From an uncultured Candidatus Saccharibacteria bacterium (lineage in GTDB: Bacteria > Patescibacteriota > Minisyncoccia > Phycocordibacterales > UBA918): 64,000 bases of DNA. The notes under the pieces are model-generated. The model was not told the DNA's origin. It searched no databases and saw nothing but the letters and a program-made list of their open reading frames with translations. Made by a program: the position numbers and the translations under genes. Below are positions 3,304 through 62,462 of this stretch, in pieces (position 1 is the first letter of the stretch; each line of letters opens with the position of its first letter). Location of the stretch: positions 165,406 to 229,405 of the forward strand of contig CAYGLK010000002.1 of the NCBI GenBank assembly GCA_964350985.1, in the 5' to 3' direction.

Positions 3304-5475
3304 TTATGCTTCCTCTACAACATCTTTAACGCCTCTTGCTTTCTTAATATCGTTAGCCACGTTTGGTGGTACGACATCATAGTGATGGAATTCCATCATC
3401 ATTGAAGCTCGTCCTTGTGTCATTGACCGGAGCATGTTGGTGTAACCAAACATTTCAGACAGCGGTACTTTTGCAGTAATCACCTTCTTGTCTCCAATAT
3501 CAGCCATTCCTTCTACTTGGCCACGCTTACTAGAAATATTTCCGTTAACGTCACCCATGAATTGTTCTGGTGTTCGAACTTCGATCTTCATTACTGGCTC
3601 AAGTAGAACAGCACCAGCCTTAGCCGCTGCTTCCTTGAAAGCATAGATAGCCGCTAGTTTGAAAGCAATTTCTGAAGAGTCCACGTCGTGGAATGACCCA
3701 TCGTAAAGCTCAACAGTAACATCCTCCATCTTAAACCCAGCCACGAATCCTCGAGACATTGCTTCTTTACAACCTTTCATTACAGCTGGGATGTATTCTC
3801 CAGGAATAACTCCTCCCTTAATACTGTTGATGAATTCGTAGTGATCTTCACGAGTCACGTTCTTAGGAATCTTCTCATCTGGCTCCAGTTCTTTCATTGG
3901 TCGGATACGGATCTTCACGTGACCATACTGTCCCCGTCCTCCAGACTGCTTAACATACTTATATTCTGCCTCCGCATCTCGTTGAATAGTTTCACGATAA
4001 GCTACTTGTGGTGCTCCCACGTTTGCCTCAACGTTAAATTCTCGCTTCATACGATCTACTAGAATTTCTAGGTGAAGTTCACCCATTCCAGCGATAATTG
4101 TTTCCATTGTTTCTTCATCGGTAGAAACTTTGAAAGTTGGATCTTCATCAGCTAGCTTTCGTAGTGCTACACCCATTCTTTCTTGGTCACCCTTTGTCTT
4201 TGGTTCTACTCGAAGTGCTACCACTGGTTCTGGGAACTTAATTTGTTCAAGTATAATTGGGTGCGCTTCGTCACAAAGTGTATGAGAAGTCTTCACTTCC
4301 TTAAGTCCTACTCCAGCAGCAATTTCTCCAGCGTATACTTCCTCGATTTCTGTTCGCTTATCAGCTTGCAGTCGAACAATACGTCCAAGACGTTCCTTTT
4401 CACCTGTAGTTGAGTTGTAGATATAACTACCAGACTTCACCACTCCAGAATATACTCGGAAGAAAGTAAGCTGTCCTACAAACGGGTCAGTTTGTAGTTT
4501 GAAAGCCAAAGCACAAAAAGGTTCACTATCGTCTGGTAGACGAGTAATATCGCTTTCGTCTTTAGGATTAATACCCTTAATTGGTGGTAGGTCTGTTGGA
4601 GCTGGTAGGTAATCAACCACAGCGTCGAGTACTAGCTGTACACCAATGTTCTTTAGCGCAGAACCAGTCATCACAGGGAAAATCTCGTTTGCAATAACAG
4701 CTTTACGTAATGTGATCTTCAAGTCTTCAGTAGTTGGTTCGTTACCAGCTAGGAAAGCCTCCATCAAAACATCATCGTGCTCTACTACTCGCTCTACTAG
4801 TTCAGCTCGATACATCTCAGCATCAGCCTTTAGTTCTTCAGGAATTTCAACTTCCTTAACTTCCATTCCCATAACTCCTTCAAAGACGAAGGCTTTCATC
4901 TTGATCAAGTCAACTACACCCTTTAGTTGATCTTCAGCTCCCCAAGGTAGTTGGATACGAACTGCTTTCTTAGATAGTCGGTCTTGGATACTCTTGTATG
5001 ACTTTTCAAAACTCGCTCCCAATCGGTCCATCTTGTTGATGAAACAAATACGAGGTACACCAGCTTCGTCAGCGTAACCCCAGTTAGTTTCTGATTGTGG
5101 TTCTACTCCTGCTACAGAGTCAAACACTACTACAGCGCCGTCGAGCACACGCATTGATCGCTTTACTTCAGCAGTAAAGTCGATGTGTCCTGGAGTATCA
5201 ATAATATTAAAGTTGTACATCTTTGTCCGATCTTTTCGATCTTCCACTTCTGTTTTAGACCAGTTACAAGAAATAGCCGCTGCGGTAATAGTAATACCAC
5301 GCTCTCGTTCTTGCTCCATCCAGTCAGTGACGGTAGCACCATCGTGCACCTCACCAATCTTGTGACTCATCCCTGTATAGAAAAGTACGCGTTCTGAAGT
5401 GGTAGTCTTACCAGCATCAACGTGCGCCACAATTCCAAAGTTTCGCATTCTATCTACTCCAAATTCTCGTGCCAT
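3304..5475 (-). CDS. fusA: Elongation factor G
   Basis: 723 aa; AHVDAGKTTTSERVL, DTPGHIDF, full five-domain EF-G length. Confidence 0.97.
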   Translation of the reverse strand: MAREFGVDRMRNFGIVAHVDAGKTTTSERVLFYTGMSHKIGEVHDGATVTDWMEQERERGITITAAAISCNWSKTEVEDRKDRTKMYNFNIIDTPGHIDFTAEVKRSMRVLDGAVVVFDSVAGVEPQSETNWGYADEAGVPRICFINKMDRLGASFEKSYKSIQDRLSKKAVRIQLPWGAEDQLKGVVDLIKMKAFVFEGVMGMEVKEVEIPEELKADAEMYRAELVERVVEHDDVLMEAFLAGNEPTTEDLKITLRKAVIANEIFPVMTGSALKNIGVQLVLDAVVDYLPAPTDLPPIKGINPKDESDITRLPDDSEPFCALAFKLQTDPFVGQLTFFRVYSGVVKSGSYIYNSTTGEKERLGRIVRLQADKRTEIEEVYAGEIAAGVGLKEVKTSHTLCDEAHPIILEQIKFPEPVVALRVEPKTKGDQERMGVALRKLADEDPTFKVSTDEETMETIIAGMGELHLEILVDRMKREFNVEANVGAPQVAYRETIQRDAEAEYKYVKQSGGRGQYGHVKIRIRPMKELEPDEKIPKNVTREDHYEFINSIKGGVIPGEYIPAVMKGCKEAMSRGFVAGFKMEDVTVELYDGSFHDVDSSEIAFKLAAIYAFKEAAAKAGAVLLEPVMKIEVRTPEQFMGDVNGNISSKRGQVEGMADIGDKKVITAKVPLSEMFGYTNMLRSMTQGRASMMMEFHHYDVVPPNVANDIKKARGVKDVVEEA

Positions 5476-5680
5476 AATAATTTTACTAATTACTTCTTAT
5501 ACCTATATATGTATTGATAATTGATACTCCCTTTCAGCCCGACGACTTACTTGAAAGTAAGCTTGGAGAAAAGAAAAAGCCTAAACAGGCTTAACGCCGA
5601 TACTATACGGTATTTGAGCCCAATCGGCAACCGTTTAAAGCTACAAAATATAAAAAATGGATTAGGTTAGGTAAAACATG

Positions 5681-5738: not shown

Positions 5739-7820
5739 ATGCAAAATAATACTTTTGACGCAGTAGTGCTGGGAGCTGGGTCAGGCGGACTAACTACAGC
5801 TGTGGGCTTGAGTAAAGTCGGTCAAAAAGTACTTCTGGTTGAGCGTGAACATATGGGTGGCGAATGTACCAATACTGGTTGTGTTCCTAGTAAGGCCCTA
5901 CTCCATCATGCTAAGGGTTATTTTCATGCTACCAAGATTGCCGGTATGACTCCGAAGACCGAGACCTATCGCCAAGAAGCCTTTACCTACGTGCGAAACA
6001 AGATTGAAGAAATTTTAGCAGAAGAAACACCGGAACACTTTCAGAAACAAGGTATCACCGTCGTAATGGGGGAAGCCGAATTTACCGGCCCAGAGAGTAT
6101 TAAGGTTGGCACTGAAGAATACACCTTCAAAAAAGCAGTGATCGCTACTGGTTCTTCCCCGCGTCCACTTGATATCCCTGGACTGGAAGAAAAAATGATC
6201 CTAACCAACCAAAATATTTTTGATCTGACCAAGATTCCCGCTCGCACCCTGATTATTGGCGGCGGTCCAATCGGAATGGAAATGGGACAAGCTCTAGCTA
6301 TGCTTGGAAGCCAAGTAACTATTATTGAAAATGGTCCCCGTTTTGCGAAACTAGAGGATGAGGCTATTAGTCCAATCATTAACAGGAAGTTCGAACAGCT
6401 TGGCATCAAAATATATACCAATGCCAACGTGACCAAGATTGAAAATTACTTGGCTGAAGTCAAAGTAAAAGACGGAGATGGTGCTGAAGTCATGATGCCG
6501 AAGATTGCCTTCGATAAAGTCTTAATTGCGATTGGTCGAGTACCCAATCTTCCAAATGGTTTAGCCCTAGCTCAAATCAAGTGTGAAACTTACGGAATAA
6601 CCGTTAATAAAAACTGGCAGACCGCCAACAAAAACATTTATGCTTTGGGTGATGTCTCGGCCCGGATGAAATTTACCCACGTAGCAGACGACACCGCCAG
6701 ACAAGTTGTTGGCCGCATAGCTAGTAAGGGTTTCTTCAGTGTGAAGACAAAAGAAATTCCCAAAGTGACTTATACCGAACCTGAAATTGCTCAGGTAGGA
6801 CTTTCATACAAAGAAGCTTTGGAAGAATATGGCATTGGAAGAATAATGCGGATTGAAGTCCCATACAGTGAAAACGATCGAGCTAAGACTGATGCTGCTA
6901 CCGAAGGACTCTTAGTCATTACCGCCAAAAGACTTTCCGGAAAAATTTTAGGAGCAAATATTATCGGTGAAAATGCTGGAGACTTAATCGGGACTATTAC
7001 AGTGACAATGCAGCACAATATTTCTCTATACAAACTTCGCTCAACTATCTTTGCCTACCCAACTCTTTCCCTTCTCATCCGGAAAGCAGGTGACAAATTC
7101 TTTGGCCAGCAAATTGCTGACCTGAAGACCGACATCAAAAATCTGCTGAAACGTAATATCCCAAAATTAGTAGCGGTATTCTTCTGGCTATCGCTTATCA
7201 TTGGTTTCAATTATTACCGAGTATCGAATGATCTTTCCTACCAGGATATTTTGATGGAAATGTTAACCTTCTTCACCAGCACGGCTTATGGGCCACTGAT
7301 CTACATGGTTTTATATGCTTTGCGTCCACTCATACTTTTCCCAGCCACGATCCTGACCGCCCTTTCCGGAGCCTTGTTTGGCTTTTGGTGGGGAGTTCTC
7401 TATACCCTTATTGGTGAAAATCTTTCAGCCAACTTCGCCTACTGGATTGGCCGCTACTTCGGTAATGATTTCAAACTAGAAAAAACAGCCATTGGAAAAT
7501 GGGTTGAAGCGCTTCGTAAAAAGCCATTTGAATCTGTCTTATTTATGCGACTCTTCTATGTACCGTTTGATCTAACCAACTACGGCTCTGGAATCCTGAA
7601 GATAAAATGGTCTTCATACTTTACCGCTACCTTGATTGGTATTGTTCCTGGCCTGACTACCTTCGTAGCTCTGGGTGCTGCCGTTGATCTAGACAAGTTC
7701 CGCACAGACGGTATTACTTTTGACGCCTTCAACCCAGCTTTCTTAGCTTTGTCAGTAGGAATCTTTGTAGTTTCAATTATGATTTCTAACTATCTTAAGA
7801 AGAAGAAAGAAGTGAAGTAA
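5739..7820 (+). CDS. Fusion protein: class I pyridine nucleotide-disulfide (FAD) oxidoreductase N-terminal domain fused to a DedA/TVP38-TMEM64 family membrane domain
   Basis: N-terminus has GAGSGG FAD fold and the redox-active GGECTNTGCVPSK CxxxxC motif (lipoamide dehydrogenase/mercuric reductase class). The C-terminal ~230 aa are multi-pass membrane with DedA-like YVPFDLTNYGSGIL segment. Confidence 0.7.
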   Translation: MQNNTFDAVVLGAGSGGLTTAVGLSKVGQKVLLVEREHMGGECTNTGCVPSKALLHHAKGYFHATKIAGMTPKTETYRQEAFTYVRNKIEEILAEETPEHFQKQGITVVMGEAEFTGPESIKVGTEEYTFKKAVIATGSSPRPLDIPGLEEKMILTNQNIFDLTKIPARTLIIGGGPIGMEMGQALAMLGSQVTIIENGPRFAKLEDEAISPIINRKFEQLGIKIYTNANVTKIENYLAEVKVKDGDGAEVMMPKIAFDKVLIAIGRVPNLPNGLALAQIKCETYGITVNKNWQTANKNIYALGDVSARMKFTHVADDTARQVVGRIASKGFFSVKTKEIPKVTYTEPEIAQVGLSYKEALEEYGIGRIMRIEVPYSENDRAKTDAATEGLLVITAKRLSGKILGANIIGENAGDLIGTITVTMQHNISLYKLRSTIFAYPTLSLLIRKAGDKFFGQQIADLKTDIKNLLKRNIPKLVAVFFWLSLIIGFNYYRVSNDLSYQDILMEMLTFFTSTAYGPLIYMVLYALRPLILFPATILTALSGALFGFWWGVLYTLIGENLSANFAYWIGRYFGNDFKLEKTAIGKWVEALRKKPFESVLFMRLFYVPFDLTNYGSGILKIKWSSYFTATLIGIVPGLTTFVALGAAVDLDKFRTDGITFDAFNPAFLALSVGIFVVSIMISNYLKKKKEVK

Positions 7821-8172: not shown

Positions 8173-8508
8173 ATGAAAAGAAAAGTATTACATTGTAATA
8201 AAGGTGACATCTTACTCATTCCCTTTCCTTTTACTGACCTGTCTAGTAGTAAGCTTCGTCCAGGGGTTGTTCTAGCTCAAGATAAAAACGATATGACCCT
8301 AATCTTTATTACGAGCCAAAAACCAAAAGGAGAAAAGTTTTTGGAACTAAATCCAACCAAAGAAAATGGCATCAAAGTAAAGTCATATATTCGCTACACC
8401 AAAGTTGCCACTCTTGATTTAGCTATGTCACTTGGTCAAATTGGTAAATTAGACAGAGAAACACACAGCAAAATTGTTTCTAGCTTTAACGACTTTATTG
8501 CGATTTAA
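8173..8508 (+). CDS. Type II toxin, MazF/PemK family endoribonuclease
   Basis: 111 aa; GDILLIPFPFTDLSSSKLRPGVVL matches the PemK/MazF signature (GDI..v.fPf.d.s..K.RPa.Vl). Confidence 0.7.
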   Translation: MKRKVLHCNKGDILLIPFPFTDLSSSKLRPGVVLAQDKNDMTLIFITSQKPKGEKFLELNPTKENGIKVKSYIRYTKVATLDLAMSLGQIGKLDRETHSKIVSSFNDFIAI

Positions 8509-20785: not shown

Positions 20786-21667
20786 TTACTCAATCCATAT
20801 TTGCTGACCATCCGTTTTAAAAACTACAGTCCCCTGCTCTGCTGTCGAAAAAAGCTCAATGTTTCTTTTACTTAATTTATCTAGTACCTCAGTGTGTGGA
20901 TGTCCGTAACTATTTCCTTTACCAGCAGACACTACAGCATAATCAGGCATAACCAGATCTAAGAATAAATCAGCTGTGGCAGTCCTAGATCCGTGATGCC
21001 CCAACTTTAAAACTTCACTTTCTAAAACATCTCCATAAGTCTTACCTATGTACTCTTCAATATTTAGAGTGGCATCCCCAGTCAACATAAACTCAATATC
21101 GCCATAACGTAGCTGCAAGACAATAGACGAAGTATTACTTTCCCAACTAGTCGGATCAGAAGCGGGAGAAAAAATAACTAAGGTGGTAGATGCACCAAGC
21201 TGAATCGTTTGCCCGGCGCGAGCCAATAGAATATCACTGGTCTCATTTTTTACCGCGGAAGAAAAAGAGCTAGATACAGCTGAGTCACTGGTATTTTCGG
21301 TGGTAATAATCTTGTCTACTTGATAACGAGCAAGCACATCAACCAGTCCACCAATATGATCTTTGTCTGGATGAGTAGATAAAACAATATCTAAATCTCG
21401 ATCCCAAATCGACATTTGCCTTGGCAACTCGCGCAAGACCGTATTGTCCGGACCACCATCAATCAGCAACTGCACACCATCAAACGTCTCAATAAAAATA
21501 GCATCTCCTTGGCCAACATCTAGAAAGGCCACGGTCAAAATTTCGTCACTTAGCGAACCGGCGCTACTAGCACTCTGTTGTCCGATATAGCCTGGATATA
21601 AAAACACAAAACCAACGAGGAAAATCAGCGCTGTCAAAAACAATATCCTAGCTCGCAAAACAGACAT
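20786..21667 (-). CDS. ComEC-type metallo-beta-lactamase domain protein (stand-alone C-terminal module of ComEC/Rec2)
   Basis: 293 aa; N-terminal signal anchor, then HPDKDHIGGL and LKLGHHGSRTA...YGHPH MBL motifs typical of the ComEC C-domain. Confidence 0.75.
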   Translation of the reverse strand: MSVLRARILFLTALIFLVGFVFLYPGYIGQQSASSAGSLSDEILTVAFLDVGQGDAIFIETFDGVQLLIDGGPDNTVLRELPRQMSIWDRDLDIVLSTHPDKDHIGGLVDVLARYQVDKIITTENTSDSAVSSSFSSAVKNETSDILLARAGQTIQLGASTTLVIFSPASDPTSWESNTSSIVLQLRYGDIEFMLTGDATLNIEEYIGKTYGDVLESEVLKLGHHGSRTATADLFLDLVMPDYAVVSAGKGNSYGHPHTEVLDKLSKRNIELFSTAEQGTVVFKTDGQQIWIE

Positions 21668-47347: not shown

Positions 47348-47782
47348 TTAGTACCCAAACTCTGAATAGAAGACATTATTACTATAGTTCAGAAGAGACA
47401 CTTTTACATAATCAACAATATTTTCTGGCAGCTGATCTAACTTAAACCAACTTAAGTCATCACATTTTTCTGGTTCTTTGTTACTGATCTCTCCAGAGTA
47501 AGCCTTAGTGGTCATAAAAAAATCAATTCTCTCATCGACACTCCCCTTTCGCTGCATTACGTGGACAACAGATATGTCATCAACTTTAAGATCGATTCCT
47601 ATTTCTTCTTTAATTTCACGCACGCAGCCTTCACGAGCGGTTTCATTTCCTTCTAGATGACCAGCAGGTACACCATAATACCCGTCCATAAAACCCGTGT
47701 TACAACGTCTTTGCAAAAGAATTTCATCACCTTTAATTAGGAATAGATATGCGGAACCAATATATGTAAATCTGTCTGTCAT
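47348..47782 (-). CDS. NUDIX hydrolase
   Basis: 144 aa; Nudix box GHLEGNETAREGCVREIKEEIGI. TGcTATACT box 8 nt upstream of the ATG. Confidence 0.75.
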   Translation of the reverse strand: MTDRFTYIGSAYLFLIKGDEILLQRRCNTGFMDGYYGVPAGHLEGNETAREGCVREIKEEIGIDLKVDDISVVHVMQRKGSVDERIDFFMTTKAYSGEISNKEPEKCDDLSWFKLDQLPENIVDYVKVSLLNYSNNVFYSEFGY

Positions 47783-47863: not shown

Positions 47864-48367
47864 TTATCCAAAATTAAGCTTCTCTCCCCGCAAGAGCTGA
47901 AATGCTTTAACTAAAGCTTTTATCTCTGGGTCATCACCTCTTTTGTTCTTAGTCATCACTTTTTCAATCTCATTTTCAGCAAACCATCCATATTCTGAGT
48001 GATCATCCATATTAATTTTAATATCTTCTACATTAGAAATAATGGTAGCAAAAAATATTACTTCTACTGAATGTGAACCTTTTACATTATTCATATATGT
48101 AAAAGAGGTAAGTGGATCTCCCACGTTAATCTCAATGTCAAATTCCTCTTTGATTTCTCGTTTTAGGCCATCAACAATATTTTCTCCAAAATCTATGTGC
48201 CCACCAGGTATCTCATACACACTTGGTAGAAACTTTTTTGTTGCTGCTCTCTTCGGCAGAAAGATTTTTTCTACACCATTAAATTTTTTATGAATAAGAG
48301 CGCACGCGGTTATAACTTGCTGCCCTTTTGCAGGCACCTCGCTATCGTGAGAAGTTTTAGTTTCCAT
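47864..48367 (-). CDS. NUDIX hydrolase (probable start at METKTSHD; the ORF track's 20-codon 5' extension is the conserved leader uORF)
   Basis: Nudix box GGHIDFGENIVDGLKREIKEEFDI. The upstream in-frame MLSEPETTRLGTLL... corresponds to repeat family B. Confidence 0.7.
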   Translation of the reverse strand: METKTSHDSEVPAKGQQVITACALIHKKFNGVEKIFLPKRAATKKFLPSVYEIPGGHIDFGENIVDGLKREIKEEFDIEINVGDPLTSFTYMNNVKGSHSVEVIFFATIISNVEDIKINMDDHSEYGWFAENEIEKVMTKNKRGDDPEIKALVKAFQLLRGEKLNFG

Positions 48368-48390
48368 AAAGTAAATATTATTTTGTAAGA

Positions 48391-48457
48391 GGGTGCCAAG
48401 ACGCGTTGTCTCCGGCTCTGATAGCATTAAACTACCTGAAAATAATTATTTTGCAAG
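48391..48457 (-). promoter_or_regulatory. Repeat family B copy 1: TTGCAA -35 box, leaderless uORF (MLSEPETTRLGT...) and conserved leader upstream of NUDIX 47864..48367
   Basis: About 50-nt block 48391-48439 is near-identical to 51122-51172; the ATG of the uORF is at 48425-48427 (minus). Confidence 0.55.
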
Positions 48458-48495: not shown

Positions 48496-48867
48496 TTAAT
48501 TTAAAGTAGAACCACTTCCAAGATGAAAGTGGAGCTGGGCCACTTCTTGCCTCTTTCCTCCATTGGTAACTATAGTGTAATCAGTGTCTTGCCAGCCTTT
48601 GTCTAAAATAATTTCTTGAGCGACCTCAAGGCATTCTTTTATGTATTTAAAATCATCAGGAGTAGCTTCAGACAGGTTTTTGATGGCTTTTTTAGGGACA
48701 ATCAATATATGCTCTTCCCAGTGCGGTTTAGGGTGCTTAAAGGCAATTACTTTATCAGTTTCCTTAATTCTTTTTACCGGTAAAAGGCCGGATAGTTTTC
48801 CAAAGGCTACTCCAACAATTAATTCACCCAGAGGTGACTTTGCTAGAGTTAAAAGCAATTTTTTCAT
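48496..48867 (-). CDS. HIT-like hydrolase
   Basis: 123 aa; C-terminal HFHLG histidine motif. Leaderless-type promoter module directly upstream. Confidence 0.5.
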   Translation of the reverse strand: MKKLLLTLAKSPLGELIVGVAFGKLSGLLPVKRIKETDKVIAFKHPKPHWEEHILIVPKKAIKNLSEATPDDFKYIKECLEVAQEIILDKGWQDTDYTIVTNGGKRQEVAQLHFHLGSGSTLN

Positions 48868-48912
48868 AGGTTGATTATAGCAAAAGACCTTGTGGGACGA
48901 CGCTAGAACGGT
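48868..48912 (-). promoter_or_regulatory. Junction module A copy 1 (degenerate): 22-mer GTTCTAGCGTCGTCCCACAAGG plus TGcTATAAT extended -10, 7 nt before the leaderless ATG of the HIT-like gene
   Basis: Aligned by eye with copies at 50653, 52009-52050 and 52715. Confidence 0.5.
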
Positions 48913-49670: not shown

Positions 49671-50441
49671 ATGAAAAAGTGGACAAAACAGCAGTGTACA
49701 ATACTGGGAATAGACAACAAAGAAGCAAGGATTCTTGATGTATTATCTAGCACGGCAGGAACAAATACTGTAGCCGTAGCAGAAAAATCTTTTATTCCAC
49801 GCATAACTACCAGACGGATATTACAAAAATTAGTGAGCCGAGGACTAGTCACGCGAACCAAACTCAAACAATCAATCAACTGGACATTAGTAAGTCCAAC
49901 AGTATTCGAAAAGAAAATCGCTTCAATATTTCAAGACTCTGATTTGTTCCATACTAGAAACATCGGTTTATCAGAAGTAGGTAGTCTAAATATCTACAGG
50001 GGTGTGAAAGAGATGATTGAAAGTAACCGCAAAATACTTATCGCACATACTGGTGAACGAGTACTAGCCATAGAGCCAAATGGAATTTGGAAGCACTTTG
50101 CGAAAATTGATCCTGAGCCAGTCCATCAATTAAATCTGTTACGGAAAGAAAAACAAATATTAATAGAGATGGTAGCAGAGGAAGGCTTTAAAGAGGTTAT
50201 AGGCAATATTGTCCATCCAAATGTAATCAATTCATTTATGTCTCTCGCTGTTGATATAAAAGTGGTACCTGCTGGTACTCTAGATTCTGCAACAGAAATT
50301 CTCATCTTTCGCGACCAATTATTATTTATGGATTGGGCACATTTAGTAGCAGTAGAAGTTAAAAATCCTAGTACACTTCGTGTCATCAAAGCAATGTTTC
50401 GAACACTTCAATCGAGTGGCTACGACTATGCTTTGAAATAA
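49671..50441 (+). CDS. Putative wHTH transcriptional regulator, TrmB-like paralog
   Basis: 256 aa; N-terminal LGIDNKEARILDVLSSTAGTNTVAVAEKSFIPRITTRRILQKLVSRGLV resembles the TrmB/MarR winged helix. Palindrome ATGTCCAAAATATGGACAT lies 40 nt upstream. Confidence 0.45.
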   Translation: MKKWTKQQCTILGIDNKEARILDVLSSTAGTNTVAVAEKSFIPRITTRRILQKLVSRGLVTRTKLKQSINWTLVSPTVFEKKIASIFQDSDLFHTRNIGLSEVGSLNIYRGVKEMIESNRKILIAHTGERVLAIEPNGIWKHFAKIDPEPVHQLNLLRKEKQILIEMVAEEGFKEVIGNIVHPNVINSFMSLAVDIKVVPAGTLDSATEILIFRDQLLFMDWAHLVAVEVKNPSTLRVIKAMFRTLQSSGYDYALK

Positions 50442-50453
50442 ATACGCAGCTAC

Positions 50454-50652
50454 GGGTGAGAAGAATCGGCGCCAGTTCTAAATAAAATTCTTCGTAAACT
50501 CGAATTTATATTAAGAACCCGCTGCCCCGTCGCTTCTGTACGGACGCTATGCCTTGCGTCCGGCTTCGCCAGAAGCTCTCTTCGATTCTTCTCACACGCT
50601 ACAAACAGCAACGGCCTCAATACATTCGTATTGAGGCCGGCCGATTTGTGCG
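50454..50652. repeat. C-element copy 1 (199 bp): bounded by inverted 15-17-nt copies of the tRNA-Gly(TCC) 3' end (GGGTGAGAAGAATCG ... CGATTCTTCTCACACGC), internally multi-hairpin, then hairpin ggcctcaatac-attc-gtattgaggcc
   Basis: Identical (by eye, 199/199 or near) to 55184-55382. Begins 13 nt after the stop of the TrmB-like gene 49671..50441. Confidence 0.7.
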
Positions 50653-50674
50653 CCTTGTGGGACGACGTTAGAAC
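50653..50674 (-). repeat. Junction 22-mer copy 2 (AAGTTCTAACGTCGTCCCACAAGG on minus), abutting the NUDIX 50677 stop codon and the 199-bp C-element
   Basis: Read directly. Confidence 0.6.
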
Positions 50675-50676
50675 TT

Positions 50677-51099
50677 TTATTGATGATTTGCAGGATCAAA
50701 CATTCCTAAAAGTTTTTTAGGTCCGTCAAAAAGTTCCATACCCTCAACATCGTCTTTGTTAACAAAGCGTATTTCAATACATTCATCTGAAGGTGTGAAA
50801 TTTAAATGCTCTAATTTAGTTTCATACAAAACATTAGCGATCCTTATTTCGGGGTGGTTTGTACTCCTGCCAGTTATGAAGTAGCTAGGGTTACTTGCTA
50901 TGTAAACTGCTTTCAGTCCCATCTCTTCCATTAATTCTCTAGGTAAATCTTCTTGAGGTGTAACGTCCCAATCTAAACCACCGCCCGGTAATTCCCATCG
51001 CCCGTTCTCCTCTTTACAGAGTAAGAATTTATCTTTTGTCTCGTTTAGAACTAAAGCTTTAACACTGACACGATAAAAACAGTTTGGTATTTCACTCAT
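50677..51099 (-). CDS. NUDIX hydrolase
   Basis: 140 aa; Nudix box GGGLDWDVTPQEDLPRELMEEMGL. Preceded by family-B leader with 13-codon uORF. Confidence 0.75.
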   Translation of the reverse strand: MSEIPNCFYRVSVKALVLNETKDKFLLCKEENGRWELPGGGLDWDVTPQEDLPRELMEEMGLKAVYIASNPSYFITGRSTNHPEIRIANVLYETKLEHLNFTPSDECIEIRFVNKDDVEGMELFDGPKKLLGMFDPANHQ

Positions 51100-51116
51100 A
51101 AATATATTTTATGTTT

Positions 51117-51188
51117 TTAATAGGTGCCAAGACGCTGCGCCTCCGGCTCTGATAGCATTAAGTTACCTGAGGAGTGGTTATGTTGCAA
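51117..51188 (-). promoter_or_regulatory. Repeat family B copy 2: TTGCAA -35 box plus 13-codon leaderless uORF MLSEPEAQRLGTY* (51117..51158) 17 nt upstream of the NUDIX 50677..51099 start
   Basis: Direct sequence comparison with copy 1; uORF translated by hand. Confidence 0.55.
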
Positions 51189-51202
51189 GTTTTGAGCCTT
51201 AG

Positions 51203-52006
51203 TTAGTCACTAAAAAGCTCTTTTTTATATGTATTTTTTATTTGCTCAACTCCTTTATCTGTTTCAATTTCACAAGAAGAATAATTAGTCTCGTTTATAT
51301 AAAGTCGCTTGCTACCAAAATCAAAACGTTTGCACCAATCTCCATGAACATTATCTACTTTATGTTGGCTATTTTTATTTAAATATCCTATTTCTATAAC
51401 TGAACCAGAAATATTCGTTAGATCTAATAAATCTTGAATTGGAAAGAGGCTGTAGTAAATTGAAGGAATGCTTCCTGAAGCGGTAAATGTCTTCCTAATC
51501 AATACATCATACTGACCATGTTTATTTTTAACATCTGAAACAAAGTTTTGCTCTGCATTAGAAAGATTTGTGTCATTTTTGAGAATCTCTGTCTTCCAAG
51601 TAGTTTTATATTCTCCATTATTATGTTGAAAAGAAATATCACTCAAAATTTCTTCTGGCGCATTTGAATAGCTTTGGTTCCAAATGCAAAACTCTTTTTC
51701 ACTATCAAGTTTACGGGTAGTCTGAATAGTATGGGAATTTTTTCCGGTAGTATATTTAACAGTTTCCTTTACTTCATTGTCACCAATTTTAAGAAATCCA
51801 TTTTTTTCGAAATCAGTTAGGGTATCTAGTACGACCCACTCGTTTTGCGGAGGTAAACCAAAAACTTCTACCCACCCAAGAAAGGTGTGGTACCGAGGCA
51901 AAACAATAGAAACCTGTTTACCATTAATTTCTAATTTAACGTCGTAGTAGTAAACATTATCTTTATATTCTTTAAATGAAATGTCCAGATTGCCTATTTT
52001 CTTCAT
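51203..52006 (-). CDS. Hypothetical protein
   Basis: 267 aa, AT-rich, no motif recognised. Leaderless-type promoter module directly upstream. Confidence 0.45.
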   Translation of the reverse strand: MKKIGNLDISFKEYKDNVYYYDVKLEINGKQVSIVLPRYHTFLGWVEVFGLPPQNEWVVLDTLTDFEKNGFLKIGDNEVKETVKYTTGKNSHTIQTTRKLDSEKEFCIWNQSYSNAPEEILSDISFQHNNGEYKTTWKTEILKNDTNLSNAEQNFVSDVKNKHGQYDVLIRKTFTASGSIPSIYYSLFPIQDLLDLTNISGSVIEIGYLNKNSQHKVDNVHGDWCKRFDFGSKRLYINETNYSSCEIETDKGVEQIKNTYKKELFSD

Positions 52007-52008
52007 AG

Positions 52009-52050
52009 TTTGATTATAGCAAAACTAACCTTTTGGGATGATGTTAGAAC
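52009..52050 (-). promoter_or_regulatory. Junction module A copy 3: 22-mer overlapping the NUDIX 52044 stop (…EKF-TAA-C…) plus TGcTATAAT-N7-ATG of gene 51203..52006
   Basis: Read directly. Confidence 0.55.
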
Positions 52051-52508
52051 TTTTCTTGAGTATCAGGAAAAGCAAGATTATAAAATTGCTTGAAAAGAGG
52101 AGATATGTTACTTGGTAAGTTATCTTTATCAAACCAGCCTGCTTCTTTAATTTCGTTTAGGTCGATTGTAATTTCACCCTCATTAGCATTAGCAAAAAAG
52201 ACATGGATAGTGTCTTTCTTAAACTCCCCATTATATTTAATTGAACCAAGTTGCTTAATGTTTTTTAACGACAAACCAACTTCTTCTTTCACTTCTCGAA
52301 TTACAGCTTGCTCAAGACTCTCACCCATTTTGATTCCTCCACCAACAGTCGTAAGTAGAGGACTGCCGTATGTATGTTTAATTAAAAGTATTTTGTTTTC
52401 GAGAGTAACAACACATCGGACACCTTCAGTTGTTGGTCTTCTTAAAAACCAATAAGCCTGCAGTACAGGGTAACCAATTTTGTAGAGAGTAGCTTTACTG
52501 AAAATCAT
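52044..52508 (-). CDS. NUDIX hydrolase
   Basis: 154 aa; Nudix box GGGIKMGESLEQAVIREVKEEVGL. Ends ...EKF* inside the junction 22-mer. Confidence 0.75.
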   Translation of the reverse strand: MIFSKATLYKIGYPVLQAYWFLRRPTTEGVRCVVTLENKILLIKHTYGSPLLTTVGGGIKMGESLEQAVIREVKEEVGLSLKNIKQLGSIKYNGEFKKDTIHVFFANANEGEITIDLNEIKEAGWFDKDNLPSNISPLFKQFYNLAFPDTQEKF

Positions 52509-52528
52509 TCACCTACTATAGCAAACTT

Positions 52529-52714
52529 GCGGGTGAGAAGAATCGGGGTCAAGTTTCTAAATAAAATTGTTCGCTAGCTCCAATTTTACTAAGAACTTTC
52601 TCCCCGGACTCGCAGGCCCAAAGGGTCCCCTGCTCCGTCTTTCGATTCTTCTCACCCGCTACCAACGGCAAAGGCCGCCAATGCTTTCGCATTGGCGGCC
52701 TGCCGATTGGTGCA
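52529..52714. repeat. Divergent C-like element: same terminal inverted tRNA-Gly 3'-end copies (GCGGGTGAGAAGAATCG ... CGATTCTTCTCACCCGC) and same helix layout, with compensatory substitutions (aaaattg/caatttt vs aaaattc/gaattt; hairpin ggccgccaatgc-tttc-gcattggcggcc)
   Basis: Aligned by eye to copy 1; stems conserved, sequences differ. Confidence 0.55.
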
Positions 52715-52736
52715 CCTTGTGGGACGGCGTTAGAAC
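52715..52736 (-). repeat. Junction 22-mer copy 4, overlapping the stop of the HExxH gene (…GEKF-TAA-CGCCGTCCCACAAGG) and abutting the divergent C-element
   Basis: Read directly. Confidence 0.6.
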
Positions 52737-53182
52737 TTTTCTCCAACCTGAACCAAAGGGGCTTTATTTTCAATAAATGTTAGTTTTCGTTTATCTCTTA
52801 AATAATTGAACAAACTAAAGATTTGTCTATTTTTCAAATAATTTAAATTTTCTTGGTTGCGATAAGCTTCTTGTTCAACAGCTCGGTATAAGTATCTATT
52901 TTCCGGATTGAGTCTTAAGAGTAAACCAGAGTAAATATCTTCTATAAATCCCAGAACCAAACAACCAATGAATAAGGTTTCCAATTGTTGTCGGAAATGA
53001 ATTCTTTCATGGTTTATAAAGACAGGAGTTGCATATTCTTCTTTACGGACAAAAATAAAAGGAAATATTGCTGCCGCTTTTGCTTTTTGAGCCCCACTTT
53101 TACCAGATGAAAAATATCCAGCTATTTTTACTAGTAGCTCTGATTCAATAATATTTGCCCCATGTTTCCGACAGAGTTGCAT
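52730..53182 (-). CDS. Hypothetical protein with HExxH motif (possible small zinc hydrolase)
   Basis: 150 aa; HERIH motif. Ends ...EKF* inside the junction 22-mer. Confidence 0.4.
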   Translation of the reverse strand: MQLCRKHGANIIESELLVKIAGYFSSGKSGAQKAKAAAIFPFIFVRKEEYATPVFINHERIHFRQQLETLFIGCLVLGFIEDIYSGLLLRLNPENRYLYRAVEQEAYRNQENLNYLKNRQIFSLFNYLRDKRKLTFIENKAPLVQVGEKF

Positions 53183-53204
53183 TAGCAGATTATATCAAAA
53201 AACT

Positions 53205-53240
53205 TTAATGCGGGTGAGAAGATCGGTCACGAATCACTAA
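53205..53240. repeat. Solo element end GCGGGTGAGAAGATCGGTCACGAATCACTAAGTATATTTGTTC, directly upstream of the HExxH gene promoter
   Basis: Reverse complement recurs fused to a tRNA-Pro 3'-end copy at 61053-61117. Confidence 0.5.
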
Positions 53241-53306
53241 GTATATTTGTTCAAATAAAAAAACCGCGCAGTGGTACTGCGCGGGTTTGGTATACCATCA
53301 GGTTCT

Positions 53307-54248
53307 TCAACAGTTGCTAAGTTCGGCTCGAATCTGATTCACAGCCTTCTCCACGTACCCATCGTATGCGTCTAACTTTTTCACTTCTTCGTCATTGTAT
53401 AGGTCAATACCTATATTCATTGGTATCACAGAAATCTGCATGAACTGATGAGTAAGGGCGTGACTGAATAGGTACTTCGCCGGAGATCTCAGCGTCACTA
53501 CATCTTTCATGAGTATATCGATAGCCAAAAGTTCCTCCAGTACCTTACTTTCACTTTCTAACTGAAAGGTTTCACCTAGAGACACATGTCTGTTGCCAAA
53601 CAGACAGTGTTTTATTGTTGCTATGGTCGAGGGCTCGTACTTACCCTGACCTCTGTAGTCCTGAAAGAGGCGCCATAACACGAAACCACTCCAAAGTACT
53701 TTAATCTCCCTCTCGGCTAAACCCATCGCTTCGGTGTCGCCACCAAAGGACTTTTGTAACTCGAAAAGTTGTTTCATCTTTCTGACGAAGTACTTCTTTT
53801 GTATTACTGCTTCGTCTTCATCAAGATGAAACCGTTCTCTCCGCTCGAAATTGCCTCTAATACAGGGGAGTTTGGCACTCTGGCCGTTGTCCTGGTACCA
53901 GAGACTCATTGTCGCATCGACATAGAGTTGAGCCTGTTCTTTTGTGAACAGCTGCTTGTCTACCAGTTTTTGCGACACCAACAATGACAGAACTAACCGT
54001 GAAAGTGGCATGAATGTGTCCTCATAGAACTGCTGTTTCACTGCGTCGTAAAGCACATTGCTGCCGTAGAACTCAATAACTTCCTTGTTTGAGAAGTACA
54101 CATCGTCTATGGCGATTACAAAAGTCTGCCAGTAGACACTATCTCCGACAAAGCTGTAACCGGACTCCTCTATGCGCTGAACGATCTGCTTTGCATAGTT
54201 AAGTAAAAACGACTCAAATTCTTCAGGTTTTTCGAATCCTTTAAACAT
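53307..54248 (-). CDS. Hypothetical protein
   Basis: 313 aa; terminator hairpin 53259-53284 follows on the minus strand. Confidence 0.45.
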   Translation of the reverse strand: MFKGFEKPEEFESFLLNYAKQIVQRIEESGYSFVGDSVYWQTFVIAIDDVYFSNKEVIEFYGSNVLYDAVKQQFYEDTFMPLSRLVLSLLVSQKLVDKQLFTKEQAQLYVDATMSLWYQDNGQSAKLPCIRGNFERRERFHLDEDEAVIQKKYFVRKMKQLFELQKSFGGDTEAMGLAEREIKVLWSGFVLWRLFQDYRGQGKYEPSTIATIKHCLFGNRHVSLGETFQLESESKVLEELLAIDILMKDVVTLRSPAKYLFSHALTHQFMQISVIPMNIGIDLYNDEEVKKLDAYDGYVEKAVNQIRAELSNC

Positions 54249-54423
54249 TGTTTTTCCTCCCTTTATGGGCTTTGTGTAAACGAACTGTTTTAACCGATAT
54301 TAAGATACAATATAAAATACTATATGTCAATAATCTCGTCACTTAGTCACGTCTATATTCAGAATACTGTTGTTTTATAATAGCATTTATGTTATATTTA
54401 TTTTGACAAAATTGTCGTCATTT

Positions 54424-55155
54424 ATGAAAAATAACTACCTAACTGCTTCCGGTCTTGATGAAAAGGAATCTACCGCCTATATAGCTCTACTTGAGCTCGG
54501 AGAGGCAACCATGAGTGAACTTACAAAGAAATCAGAACTAAAAAGGTCGACTCTATATTTTATTGTTGAAGCACTTCACAAAAAAAGATTGATTGGTATT
54601 GTAAAAAAGGGGAAGAAAACCGTCTACTCGGCCGAAGACCCCAAAAGGCTCCTTGAGCAAGCCGACGAGAACCGACGCAATCTTGAATATGCGATGCCAG
54701 AACTTTTATCTGTTGCCAACAATATTGTCAAAAAGCCAAAGGTGAGATTTTTTGAAGGGGTGGACGGTATCAAAGAAGTGTACAGGGATATTCTTAGATA
54801 CCCTGATAATAAGATTTGCGCTTGGGTATCGGAGTCGATGATTACAGAATTTGATTCAAGCTTTATTACTGACCACTATATTCCGAAACGGCTTGAAAAG
54901 AAAATTTGGGCAGAGGTGATTGCCTCTGATACTACTGTTGGTAAGGATTTTAAGTCTAAGGATCTTGAGGCGCTACGAAAAACAAGGCTGCTCGATGAGT
55001 CGCAATTCCCTCTTTCGATTGAAATTAGTCTCTATGGTAAAGATAAAATTGGTTTTATGTCGATAGATGACAAACTTGGCCTCATTGTGGAAAGTAAACC
55101 CATAGCTGACACATTAAAGAGCATATTCAAAGCACAATGGGATTCTCTGTCTTGA
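54424..55155 (+). CDS. TrmB family transcriptional regulator
   Basis: N-terminal wHTH TAYIALLELGEATMSELTKKSELKRSTLYFIVEALHKKRLI plus C-terminal TrmB-like domain. Start set at MKNNYL. Confidence 0.55.
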   Translation: MKNNYLTASGLDEKESTAYIALLELGEATMSELTKKSELKRSTLYFIVEALHKKRLIGIVKKGKKTVYSAEDPKRLLEQADENRRNLEYAMPELLSVANNIVKKPKVRFFEGVDGIKEVYRDILRYPDNKICAWVSESMITEFDSSFITDHYIPKRLEKKIWAEVIASDTTVGKDFKSKDLEALRKTRLLDESQFPLSIEISLYGKDKIGFMSIDDKLGLIVESKPIADTLKSIFKAQWDSLS

Positions 55156-55183
55156 TCGTATTCATAAAATAAAGTTAAATTTC

Positions 55184-55382
55184 GGGTGAGAAGAATCGGC
55201 GCCAGTTCTAAATAAAATTCTTCGTAAACTCGAATTTATATTAAGAACCCGCTGCCCCGTCGCTTCTGTACGGACGCTATGCCTTGCGTCCGGCTTCGCC
55301 AGAAGCTCTCTTCGATTCTTCTCACACGCTACAAACAGCAACGGCCTCAATACATTCGTATTGAGGCCGGCCGATTTGTGCG
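55184..55382. repeat. C-element copy 2 (199 bp), directly downstream of TrmB gene 54424..55155
   Basis: Near-identical to 50454-50652. Confidence 0.7.
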
Positions 55383-55590
55383 GGTGAGAAGATCGGTCAC
55401 GAGTTACTAACTATAATAGTTCGCTTCGCTCCTTTTCTAGTAAGTACTCTCGACCCCAGCTCGCTCATTGCTACGCAATATCGCTGCGCTTTTCGATTCT
55501 TCACGCAAAGCGCGCAGGCGCTTTGCTTCACCCGCACACTATGTTTCAAACGAAAAAGCCCCTTGAAGGGCTTTTTCGGAAACATATGTG
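55382..55590. repeat. Second element between C-copy 2 and tRNA-Gly(TCC): starts GCGGGTGAGAAGATCGGTCACGAGTTAC (same variant end as 53209-53240), ends with an interrupted tRNA-Gly 3' end (ttcgattcttc-[acgcaaagcgcgcaggcgctttgc]-ttcacccgc), then hairpin/T-run 55546-55578
   Basis: Read directly; the shared 5' segment with 53209-53240 is about 26 nt. Confidence 0.5.
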
Positions 55591-55661
55591 TGCGGGTGAG
55601 AAGAATCGAACTCCCGACTACTGCTTGGAAGGCAGTCGTTTTACCACTAAACTACACCCGC
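55591..55661 (-). tRNA. tRNA-Gly (anticodon TCC)
   Basis: Manual fold of the reverse complement: acceptor GCGGGTG/CACCCGC, D-arm GTTT-AGTGGTA-AAAC, anticodon loop CTTCCAA, T-loop TTCGATT, discriminator A; no encoded CCA. Confidence 0.8.
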
Positions 55662-60845: not shown

Positions 60846-60916
60846 CGGGGTGTAGCATAGTGGTAGTGTACACGGTTTGGGACCGTGTGGTCCGGGTTCG
60901 ATTCCCGGCTCCCCGA
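60846..60916 (+). tRNA. tRNA-Pro (anticodon TGG)
   Basis: Acceptor CGGGGTG/CTCCCCG (one T-T mismatch at 6:67), anticodon stem-loop CACGG-TTTGGGA-CCGTG, T-arm CCGGG-TTCGATT-CCCGG, discriminator A, then hairpin/T-run. Confidence 0.7.
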
Positions 60917-60949
60917 CAAATAAAAAGGCGGCTTTATGCCGTTTTTTTA

Positions 60950-61117
60950 TTTGTTGGGGAGAAAACGTGCCCTGCGGCACGTTTGACCGGAATCGAAAAG
61001 CGCAGTGATGCCTTTAGGCGAGCGAGCTGTGGTCAAGAACACTTAGTAGATTTGGAGTCGAAGACGAACAAATATACTTAGTGATTCGTGACCGATTCCC
61101 GACTCCCCGACAAACAT
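60950..61117 (+). repeat. Repeat unit 1 downstream of tRNA-Pro (hairpin aaaacgtgccctgcggcacgttt...), ending with GAACAAATATACTTAGTGATTCGTGACCGA fused to a second copy of the tRNA-Pro 3' end (TTCCCGACTCCCCGACAAA) and its own terminator 61120-61160
   Basis: tRNA 3' end duplicated 19/20; about 100-nt unit is homologous to 61148-61260. Confidence 0.55.
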
Positions 61118-61147
61118 AAAATCCTGTAGTCTTTTAAGATTACAGGA

Positions 61148-61260
61148 TTTTGTTGTTTTCAGAGAAGAAAACGTGCCATGTGGCACGTTTGTACGGAATC
61201 TAAAATTGCAGCGATGTATTAGACGAGTGATCTTGGGTTAAGGACGCTTAGTAATTTGGG
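61148..61260 (+). repeat. Repeat unit 2 (gaaaacgtgccatgtggcacgtttgtacggaatctaaaattgcagcgatg...), diverged tandem copy of unit 1
   Basis: Aligned by eye, about 70-75% identity over about 100 nt, including a conserved hairpin. Confidence 0.45.
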
Positions 61261-61405
61261 TTAAGCAAAAGATATCCTCAGCGATTTATTATCGATTACT
61301 GACCCAAAGTAAAGTTGCGGGATAGGGATTATCTTTTCACATGAAACACTACAAATATGTTTCACGTGGTACATATGCTCATATTTACAGACGTTACACG
61401 TGTAA

Positions 61406-61822: not shown

Positions 61823-62180
61823 TAATTTCAGTATATCACTAGAATTTACCTATGTTCTACGTGTAACAGGTAATAAGTGTTTCACGTGGCACACAAAATC
61901 AACATAGCTTGTTTTATATAGCTATTTGTCTTTTATAATTTGTCCTTTATCCACCTATACACCTACTTTTCCACAGTTCTGTTTATATCTTGTAAGTTTG
62001 TCCTTTAGGAAGTTTCTTCGAATTTATTGTATTGGGGGACAGGGGTAATCGCCAGCTTACTGCCGCAGTACACCTTTTGAATATATTCTTCCTTATAGTC
62101 AGAATCTATCTCAAAAGCTCTTCCGATCACCCAAGCAAAATTGAAAAAGACCAGGGTAGAAACCCTGATCTTTCTCAATT

Positions 62181-62205
62181 TGTGCGGCCAGGGGTAATCG
62201 AAACC
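62181..62205 (-). repeat. Perfect 25-bp direct repeat of the tRNA-Gly(GCC) 3' half (TGTGCGGCCAGGGGTAATCGAAACC), 209 bp from the intact copy at 62390-62414; a third partial copy (CAGGGGTAATCG) at 62040-62051
   Basis: Read directly; classic att-like duplication of a tRNA 3' end. Confidence 0.7.
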
Positions 62206-62391
62206 TGACGGTCACCAACGTCCTTTGCTTCAAGTATTCGCAAAGCGACGTGGTGCCGCGGGTCACGCCTCACTTGTTCGTAACCTCACAGTGTTCTGGC
62301 GGTTTCTCATACACAATGGGTGCGCAGGCACCCATTTACCAACCCTTACATATATAAAAATGACCCAAATTAAGGGTCATTTTTATATATG

Positions 62392-62462
62392 TGCGGCCAG
62401 GGGTAATCGAAACCCCGACTGTTGCTTGGCAAGCAACCGTTATACCACTTAACCATGGCCGC
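62392..62462 (-). tRNA. tRNA-Gly (anticodon GCC)
   Basis: Reverse complement folds: GCGGCCA/TGGCCGC acceptor, D-arm GTTA-AGTGGTA-TAAC, anticodon loop TTGCCAA, T-arm GGGGT-TTCGATT-ACCCC. Terminator hairpin follows. Confidence 0.8.

Follow-up and report, generated by a model that had tools for sequence, protein, structure and literature searches.

Folded modules behind tRNA genes lie at the joints of a gene-cassette island in Saccharibacteria

The 64-kb window analysed here (64,000 nt of contig CAYGLK010000002.1, from an uncultured Candidatus Saccharibacteria bacterium) contains a conserved gene order consisting of a sigma factor, a DUF5667 protein, a trypsin-like protease, tRNA-Gly(TCC), a variable island, HU and RNase Y. 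The region behind tRNA-Gly(TCC) ranges from 0.8 to 9.7 kb among relatives and extends over 9.7 kb to the HU gene in the window. Within this island, a structured repeat, hereafter termed the module, recurs in several copies (Table 1). Copies A and C are 100% identical across 200 nt and lie in unrelated flanks, bearing out a first-pass annotation of this DNA that had described them as near-identical; the diverged copy B shares ~84% mean column identity with A and C and differs from them by several indels. With up to three mismatches allowed, the window contains nine occurrences of the 17-mer GCGGGTGAGAAGAATCG, as compared with 0.05 expected; this 17-mer is the reverse complement of the tRNA-Gly(TCC) 3' end, and the tRNA is encoded on the minus strand. 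The last 19-20 nt of the tRNA, TTCGATTCTTCTCACCCGCA, constitute X, the segment that is copied in the modules, and tRNA-oriented X copies are found in the island at 55379, 55181, 53209, 52528 and 50451. Further copies of the module, which the first-pass annotation had proposed to seek, are present in related loci and at other tRNAs. Pattern scans yielded four genome and 13 metagenome loci and look-ups around protease homologues 17 more, amounting to 34 in total (labelled L with a number below); the four genome records are metagenome-assembled genomes labelled Candidatus Saccharibacteria (two), Candidatus Parcubacteria (one) and uncultured bacterium (one). As far as our searches reach, the modules are a real, widespread and apparently undescribed structured family anchored at tRNA 3' ends in Saccharibacteria, and they mark the joints of a horizontally exchanged gene-cassette island.

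The module is polar and reads 5' to 3' on the minus strand, which is the strand of the tRNA. Read in this direction, the unit begins directly after '...GCA' and is composed, in order, of H, X', P2, a purine-rich junction (GCGAG..GGGG), P3 and X, with boundaries at ...CACCCG^CAC(A/C)AATC... and ...CTCACCCG(CA)^, where the caret marks the joint. H is a long irregular, terminator-like hairpin. X' (GCGGGTGAGAAGAATCGAA) is the complement of X and forms the 5' strand of the P1 helix, and X (CGATTCTTCTCACCCG(CA)), a copy of tRNA positions ~54-73 from the T-loop to the discriminator, forms its 3' strand, such that P1 (X'/X, 13-19 bp) is a duplex copy of the last ~19 bp of the tRNA gene. P2 is a variable branch, and P3 is a long conserved hairpin with a conserved tip, GA-(2-3 bp mini-stem)-GAA. 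Across the family, modules measure ~130-240 nt. The type-3 module has a small hairpin interrupting X' and, as its H, the genuine terminator of the tRNA; homologues of this type are found in L010, L011, L012, L015, L020 and L022-L027. GTAG stands directly 5' of X' in type 1/2 modules and is not found in type-3 and tRNA-Pro modules. Behind tRNA-Gly(TCC), the tRNA end is predicted to pair with segment 'a' of the following module and thereby to lengthen the stem of the terminator hairpin H-term.

This anatomy redraws the unit in part. The first-pass annotation had taken the repeat as a 199-bp element bounded by a terminal inverted repeat identical to the end of tRNA-Gly(TCC); the match to the tRNA end stands, but the second arm is internal to the repeat, and the 53-nt hairpin H beyond it also belongs to the unit. 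Besides the inclusion of H, it had missed the polarity, the type-3 module, the remnant in the island and the family at two other tRNAs of the window. It had also placed the start of each copy just behind the stop of a TrmB-like gene, which holds for copies A and C (stops at 50441 and 55155, with the copies beginning 12 and 28 nt later) and loosely for L012, and fails for copy B and for most related loci. Copy B is followed by a TGnTATAGT promoter and then a NUDIX gene, and the remnant closes a segment that contains a TrmB-like gene and a 313-aa gene.

On the tRNA-sense strand the module folds as a rod comprising H, P1, the side branch P2 and the hairpin P3. In a module joined end to end as a circle, X-H-X' and X'-P2/P3-X form a single common helix, and the fold becomes a closed rod with one or two side branches. 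The repeat copies have fold z-scores of -8.4 and -8.5, the circular folds are at least 9 standard deviations (SD) more stable than shuffles with RNA or DNA parameters alike, and the tRNA-sense strand folds better than its complement in 14 of 14 units with RNA parameters and in 13 of 14 with DNA parameters. H1, the H hairpin of type-1 modules, comprises 24 pairs, with 98.4% of cells paired and 10 pairs changed on both sides; its covariation score is 0.384, as compared with 0.138 for shuffled alignments, and none of 500 shuffles reaches it. P3 comprises 18 pairs, of which 13 are changed on both sides (score 0.491 versus 0.145 for shuffled, 0/500 shuffles), and its apical helix has 95.5% of cells paired and compensatory changes in all nine of its pairs. 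Shifting the partners by 1-3 columns abolishes the covariation signal in both hairpins. With these additional sequences, the claim that copy B keeps its two named helices through compensatory changes is upheld for both H1 and P3. The proposal that selection acts on secondary structure is likewise well supported by the covariation and by the stability of the sense strand, to which the selection can now be assigned.

Two leading explanations, a hairpin-type recombination site and a structured RNA, remain of the three that the first-pass annotation had offered, and the hairpin tips bear on the choice between them. The H1 loops are closed by C-G in 11 of 11 cases (GAAA, GAGA, GATA, GTTA, GAAT and GAAC, and GTAT), and the P3 tips are GNA triloops in nine of 17 distinct cases, GCGAAGC among them. 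Such loops form extraordinarily stable DNA mini-hairpins that are found at single-strand DNA initiation signals (PMC13037366). These DNA-type tips favour DNA as the acting molecule, although they are suggestive only.

As an RNA, the modules would be structured non-coding RNAs produced by read-through from the tRNA or from an upstream cassette gene. P1 would imitate the coaxial stack of acceptor and T stem of the cognate tRNA together with the discriminator, so that RNase P and tRNA 3'-end enzymes would excise the module as they do a tRNA of a polycistronic operon, and the RNA would act in trans or in cis, for example if X' base-pairs with the 3' end or the trailer of the tRNA. This accounts for modules that are always co-oriented with and close behind a tRNA, for strong covariation together with conserved unpaired junction and loop nucleotides, for the better folding of the sense strand, and for conserved G.U pairs (P3 pair 8-63 is G.T in 12 of 20 sequences). 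P1 copies the acceptor and T stem and ends in ...CACCCGCA as the tRNA does, the arms match four different tRNAs, and folds that include the tRNA 3' end show X' paired with it perfectly over the intervening terminator. By comparison, scoring for intrinsic terminators picks out H1 on the sense strand alone, H-term consists of canonical terminator hairpins, and TGnTATAAT promoters begin right after X, so that the modules should be little transcribed; the stretch from H to X' contains no promoter. Furthermore, terminal P1 pairs are often lost (CTCAC^TCTG, CACCC^AG, CACCC^TT), modules are absent from close relatives, several diverged module types are stacked in one locus, and the arms at times fail to fit the resident tRNA, namely in L004 and in the L012 module that comes second. 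The loops are GNA triloops and GAAB tetraloops rather than GNRA or UNCG, and no Rfam family matches even at E<=1-10. We regard an RNA function as possible and as the main rival explanation. A hammerhead, twister or similar ribozyme was rejected, as the cores are absent and Rfam gives no match, and so was an X' resembling a retroviral primer-binding site: X' spans positions 72-54 of the tRNA, lacks a CCA complement unless the genome encodes CCA, and is accompanied by no reverse transcriptase that we could see.

The position of the modules is as constrained as their fold. A P3 model built from the aligned modules was scanned over the whole window and 24 loci, and every match lies downstream of a tRNA or inside a tRNA-linked island. 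In the window itself, the model finds only the five modules of the tRNA-Gly(TCC) island and two behind tRNA-Pro(TGG), and no match lies away from tRNA-linked sites. A same-strand tRNA lies upstream in the scanned sequence for 30 of the 34 matches, 23 of them at a distance of 380 nt or less, and none of the 34 is on the strand opposite the nearest tRNA. Modules stand singly or in tandem directly 3' of tRNA-Gly(TCC); the usual site is immediately after the tRNA, and others are found after another module, after a motif termed D3 (described below) or after one lineage's conserved flank. The joint follows the last bases of the tRNA (...CACCCG^CA...), and the module either stands alone (~200 nt) or heads cargo genes. 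The tandem pattern tRNA-X^H-X'..X^H-X'..X is observed in the window and in L011, L012, L015, L020 and L026.

Although module interiors stay homologous, their arms differ according to the tRNA (Gly-TCC, Gly-GCC, Pro, Arg). Behind tRNA-Pro in the window, the arms are the tRNA-Pro 3' end and its complement, and P2/P3 are nearly the same as in the Gly modules of other genomes. Both units behind tRNA-Gly(GCC) finish with a copy of that tRNA's own 3' end, which is exact over 21 nt in the first (62183-62203) and reads GGCGATTACCCCTGTCCCCCA in the second (62033-62053). Modules with matching arms also lie behind tRNA-Pro, tRNA-Gly(GCC) and tRNA-Arg(TCG) in other loci, and the arms covary with the resident tRNA allele (T stem CTTCT versus CCTCT), with L004 and the second module of L012 as the exceptions. 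Some tRNAs of the related loci encode CCA in the genome (L001 tRNA-Gly, 6714-6787; L021 tRNA-Arg, 20847-20921), and those of the window do not; the tRNA end that is encoded, with or without CCA, finds its complement in hairpin H or in segment 'a' of the module behind it.

Host-domesticated palindromes of the repetitive extragenic palindrome/bacterial interspersed mosaic element (REP/BIME) type offer a different account of such intergenic structures. They would reinforce termination, protect upstream 3' ends and insulate cassettes, and unequal recombination or a single-copy HUH enzyme (RAYT-like) would multiply them from time to time. The tandem alternation of X and X' with alternating linkers (H and P2/P3) resembles BIME mosaics, the modules are located behind a terminator and are followed by a promoter or by the end of a convergent gene, and GTAG stands immediately 5' of X' in type 1/2 modules. 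However, the copies are confined to tRNA-linked sites with none elsewhere in 64 kb, GTAG is missing in type-3 and tRNA-Pro modules, the tRNA-specific arms are left unexplained, and no Y1 HUH transposase or RAYT is found among the scanned open reading frames (ORFs) of the window, which covers 64 kb of a 304-kb contig. We regard this BIME-like variant of the DNA reading as improbable.

Comparison of related loci reveals presence and absence of modules at otherwise equivalent sites. In L019, L021, L028 and L031-34, an identical tRNA 3' end is followed by a plain terminator and no module. L027 and L028, whose proteases are 100% identical, are distinguished by one block, made up of H-term, module, NUDIX cassette and D3 and bounded by direct repeats of GCA + CAG(C/T)CA(A/G)CATGAAAAG; the joint of the L027 insertion is GCA^H, not X. 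The NUDIX cassette at 50647-51151 of the window shares 95% DNA identity with L027 5053-5557 and L029 734-1238, as compared with 62% protein identity for the flanking proteases, indicating recent horizontal transfer of a single cassette. Cassettes of the tRNA-Gly(TCC) island are indeed exchanged across distant lineages. In L004, the module arms read CACCCGC and the resident tRNA CGCCCGC, a mismatch indicating that the arms arrived with the module. L002 and L003 have the upstream flank, H1 and X' in common and differ in their module interiors and downstream genes. The protease protein is the same in L024/L025 and L026, and their DNA is identical across ~180 aligned nt 5' of the tRNA and through most of the tRNA itself; divergence sets in at the T stem, with the tRNA T-arm allele and the module arms changing together. 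Over L024 5330-5760 and L026 255-685, identity is 100% through the 5' two thirds of tRNA-Gly(TCC) and ends exactly at the 5' strand of the T stem, which points to a recombination breakpoint inside the tRNA gene. L020 (contig_782, 993 kb) has trigger factor, ClpP, RNase Y and other genes split into short fragments that look like frameshift errors of a long-read assembly, and details of its sequence are to be read with care.

Joints of this kind could also be passive scars, namely displaced attachment (att) fragments left by repeated integrase-mediated integration and decay, with hairpins that are mere terminators. Direct repeats of partial tRNAs between elements are a hallmark of tRNA-targeted islands (Islander, PMC4383910; tycheposons, 10.1101/2020.12.28.424599), and the identity of strains breaks inside the tRNA at the T stem. 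L031 (10850-10970) in fact contains a 33-nt direct duplication of the 3' part of tRNA-Pro, from the variable loop to the discriminator, around a ~70-nt insert; this is a classical att-type scar and is unlike the modules. Scars would leave unexplained the inverted copy X', the compensatory changes in H1 and P3, the excess stability of at least 9 SD, the conservation of the interior across genomes and four tRNAs and the 100% identical pair, and the L027 joint is GCA^H rather than X. This origin is very improbable.

The remaining candidate of the first-pass annotation, a classical miniature inverted-repeat transposable element (MITE), is hardly credible. Such an element would be a deletion derivative of a DDE transposon whose terminal inverted repeats resemble the tRNA end by chance and which inserts with target-site duplication. 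An inverted repeat of 15-19 bp and two identical copies fit this description. Nevertheless, the annotation's check for target-site duplications turns up none at the flanks of A, B or C, the repeat is not terminal, as the left arm is preceded by H and H moves along with it, and the copies are strictly polar and tRNA-linked rather than dispersed. In addition, the interior is retained even where the arms have been exchanged for ones that fit the Pro, Gly-GCC or Arg tRNA.

We favour the reading, with a probability of roughly 0.4, that the modules are non-autonomous DNA modules that home to tRNA 3' ends and serve as portable attachment sites for the cassette island. We thus lean towards DNA over RNA, with neither proven. 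The folded single DNA strand would be the active form; an intermediate, circular or excised, would be joined directly behind the last bases of the tRNA by a recombinase or transposase whose gene lies elsewhere, and further modules and cassettes would stack behind it. Because every module ends in the same copy of the tRNA end, insertion would regenerate the target, and regeneration with stacking would give rise to tandem arrays and to the 9.7-kb island between tRNA-Gly(TCC) and the HU gene. The identity of A and C in unrelated flanks, the arms of L004 and the sharing of the NUDIX cassette suggest recent movement.

Several points weigh against this attachment-site reading. No tyrosine or serine recombinase and no HUH or DDE transposase is found in the islands examined or in 32 scanned ORFs of the window (Pfam, PHROGs), and no circular junction, excision product or target-site duplication is demonstrated. 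Type-3 modules are so common beside tRNAs that, instead of being insertions, they could represent a functional feature resident there. The conserved junction and loop nucleotides (GCGAG, GGGG, GA..GAA, TGTAA) and the co-orientation with the tRNA would also be expected of an RNA, and the concordance of allele and arms in L024/L025 versus L026 can be explained by block replacement through homologous recombination, with no dedicated enzyme. A bolder version of the attachment-site reading, in which Saccharibacteria possess a cassette-capture system without an integrase in cis, with a ~200-nt single-stranded DNA rod and a duplex copy of the tRNA end as an analogue of the integron attC site that can be retargeted among tRNAs, is in our judgement unlikely.

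The cassettes between the modules carry a second recurrent element at their 3' ends. D3 is a 22-nt motif (minus strand, GTTCTAACGYCGTCCCACAAGG + YGCA) with four matches in the window against 0 expected, and further copies in L010, L012, L015 and L027. Two window copies are followed by a module (GCA^H1), and the other two, at 52029 and 48888, are directly followed by a promoter, so that they would serve as 'empty' sites. D3 supplies the stop codon of two genes (...EKF-stop) and holds the place that X has elsewhere. Derivation of D3 from the 3' end of another tRNA was considered and dropped for want of a convincing T arm. In L012, ~270 nt of GC-rich, apparently structured non-coding DNA (6167-6440) lie between the module and D3, upstream of a convergent TrmB gene.

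Over all loci, the island cargo comprises NUDIX, HIT, TrmB, MFS, metalloprotease-like, DUF3800, AHSA1, GIY-YIG, rhodanese and metallo-beta-lactamase-fold proteins as well as unknowns. In the window, four NUDIX hydrolase paralogues share the island with a HIT-family gene and two distant TrmB-like regulators, and nucleotide-pyrophosphatase-type genes are unusually concentrated there. A motif of ~35 nt, CAGAGCCGGAG(A/G)C...GCGTCTTGG(C/T)ACC, recurs ~30 nt upstream of NUDIX start codons in several genomes; it may be a small cis-regulatory RNA, although Rfam gives no match even at E<=1, the hairpin it forms is short and six aligned sequences show no covariation. A GIY-YIG protein was rejected as a helper of the modules, since L031 and L034 are identical and thus give no presence/absence signal. 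A 76-aa ORF across the 'GGGGGCA' flank of L003 is interrupted in L002 and is probably non-coding.

Table 1. Features of the module family, the adjoining tRNA genes and the island in the 64-kb window (positions in other loci carry the locus label)
Feature	Positions	Strand	Basis or remark
tRNA-Gly(TCC)	55591-55661 (start 55590/55591)	-	ARAGORN; Rfam tRNA 72.6 bits
H-term terminator hairpin, canonical GC stem and U run, directly after tRNA-Gly(TCC)	55538-55590	-	sequence, fold
Type-3 module between tRNA and copy C	55379-55537	-	P3 model 83.9 bits; fold z -10.1
Parts of this type-3 module	a 55526-55537; hp 55506-55525; b 55492-55505; P2; P3 55391-55457; X 55379-55396 CCGATCTTCTCACCCGCA	-	
Type-1 module, copy C	55183-55382; H1 55330-55382; X' 55311-55329; P2; P3 55194-55258; X 55183-55198	-	
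Module remnant, 3' half of P3 and X (CCGATCTTCTCACCCGCA)	53209-53252	-	89% to 55379-55422
Type-1 module, diverged copy B	52529-52714; H1 52660-52714; X' 52641-52659; P3 52541-52606; X 52529-52545	-	P3 model 70 bits
Type-1 module, copy A	50453-50652; H1 50600-50652; X' 50581-50599; P3 50464-50528; X 50453-50468	-	
D3 followed by GCA^H1 module	52715-52736; 50653-50674	-	
D3 running straight into TGnTATAAT promoter, no module	52029-52050; 48888-48909	-	
tRNA-Pro(TGG)	60846-60916	+	predicted tRNA gene
Terminator and type-3 module, arms matching tRNA-Pro	60917-61110	+	P3 model 79.9 bits; z -10.2
Parts of the tRNA-Pro module	a 60954-60961; hp 60962-60984; b 60985-60997; P3 61029-61097; X CGATTCCCGACTCCCCGA 61093-61110	+	
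Second, degenerate terminator and module after tRNA-Pro	61111-61300	+	P3 model 22 bits, E 0.01
tRNA-Gly(GCC)	62392-62462	-	upstream of two terminator-plus-module units
Two terminator-plus-module units after tRNA-Gly(GCC)	62033-62391	-	z -10.5
NUDIX hydrolase paralogues	47348-47782; 47864-48427; 50677-51099; 52044-52508		
HIT-family gene	48496-48867		
Distant TrmB-like regulators	49671-50441; 54424-55155		
313-aa protein	53307-54248	-	no Pfam/PHROGs match
267-aa protein	51203-52006	-	no Pfam/PHROGs match
150-aa protein	52730-53182		HExxH motif; match to phage 'protease' family phrog_15610, E 7e-16
Motif upstream of NUDIX genes, window	48369-48439; 51100-51170	-	
Motif upstream of NUDIX genes, other loci	L001 ~6380-6430; L020 ~8311-8375; L024 ~4200-4245; L027 ~5500-5560		

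Database searches returned no relatives of the modules. In Rfam 15, only tRNAs reach the gathering score, and nothing meaningful appears at E<=1-10 for the window, the module regions, the L002 flank or D5/D3. The modules have no blastn match in INPHARED phages or PLSDB plasmids, exact-pattern scans of viral contigs for the inverted-repeat pattern and the tRNA end gave no match, and no description of such modules was found in the literature on Saccharibacteria islands, integrons and structured RNA.

Bacteria of the Candidate Phyla Radiation have tiny genomes with few recognisable mobile elements. A module that stands at cassette joints and copies the tRNA end provides a concrete handle on the mechanism of cassette exchange. 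Should it act as DNA, it would represent a hairpin attachment site of a new kind, linked to tRNA genes; should it act as RNA, it would define a new class of tRNA-end-mimicking RNAs, one per cognate tRNA. A cassette-capture system, if real, would explain gene flux in ultra-small genomes that are poor in mobile elements.

Structural comparison with known systems reveals partial likenesses. The terminal helix of the module, with the acceptor on the T stem followed by the discriminator base, resembles the tRNA minihelix recognized by RNase P and the CCA enzyme. This is distinct in that the module helix continues through the T-loop positions and forms no elbow. With REP/BIME sequences and elements derived from IS200/IS605, the modules have in common strand-specific hairpins, lack of target-site duplication, an intergenic location after genes, alternating repeat orientation and linkers, and a non-autonomous nature. 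By comparison, the modules occur only at tRNA-linked sites, take their arms from the neighbouring tRNA, are much larger and branched, and are accompanied by no Y1 or RAYT enzyme that was seen. Hairpins, polarity and the lack of a visible duplication would fit ends of the IS200/IS605 type, but the modules also contain the long X'/X repeat, and the target ..G^CA is short and a weak criterion.

In islands targeted to tRNAs, direct repeats of partial tRNAs separate successive elements (Islander, PMC4383910; tycheposons, 10.1101/2020.12.28.424599). The island described here likewise lies beside a tRNA with direct copies of the tRNA 3' end between its segments, also at tRNA-Pro and tRNA-Gly(GCC), with newer segments nearest the tRNA and accessory cargo that turns over at the strain level. 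It differs in that no integrase is seen in any island, units can be only ~200 nt, the modules add an inverted copy and a covarying rod, and the joint follows the last base of the tRNA (GCA^CA) instead of lying inside the tRNA.

The attP site of CTX-phi, an integrative mobile element exploiting Xer recombination (IMEX), contains two inverted target-like copies ~90-150 nt apart that anneal in single-stranded DNA and thereby mimic the duplex target of the host recombinase. The module contains a comparable pair of inverted target copies. Its target and hairpin stem are the tRNA end and not dif, no phage or replication genes accompany it, and modules stack in arrays.

The attC sites of integrons are imperfect hairpins in which structure rather than sequence is conserved and one strand is active. 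The array in the window differs from an integron in several respects: no intI, attI or Pc lies beside it, its neighbours on the tRNA side being the trypsin-like protease, the DUF5667 protein and the sigma factor; no Phage_integrase match is found in the scanned ORFs of the window or in the Pfam annotations of related loci; and the module ends carry no RYYYAAC/GTTRRRY boxes. Furthermore, the fixed point of the modules is a tRNA 3' end, and their conserved stem copies that end; the island cassettes have their own promoters and some inverted genes, and modules also stand free of cargo and at several tRNAs. In likeness to attC, the module is a structure-conserved, strand-asymmetric hairpin of variable sequence, with a variable apical part and conserved unpaired bases, and is found as one site per cassette in arrays of small genes that grow from a fixed point.

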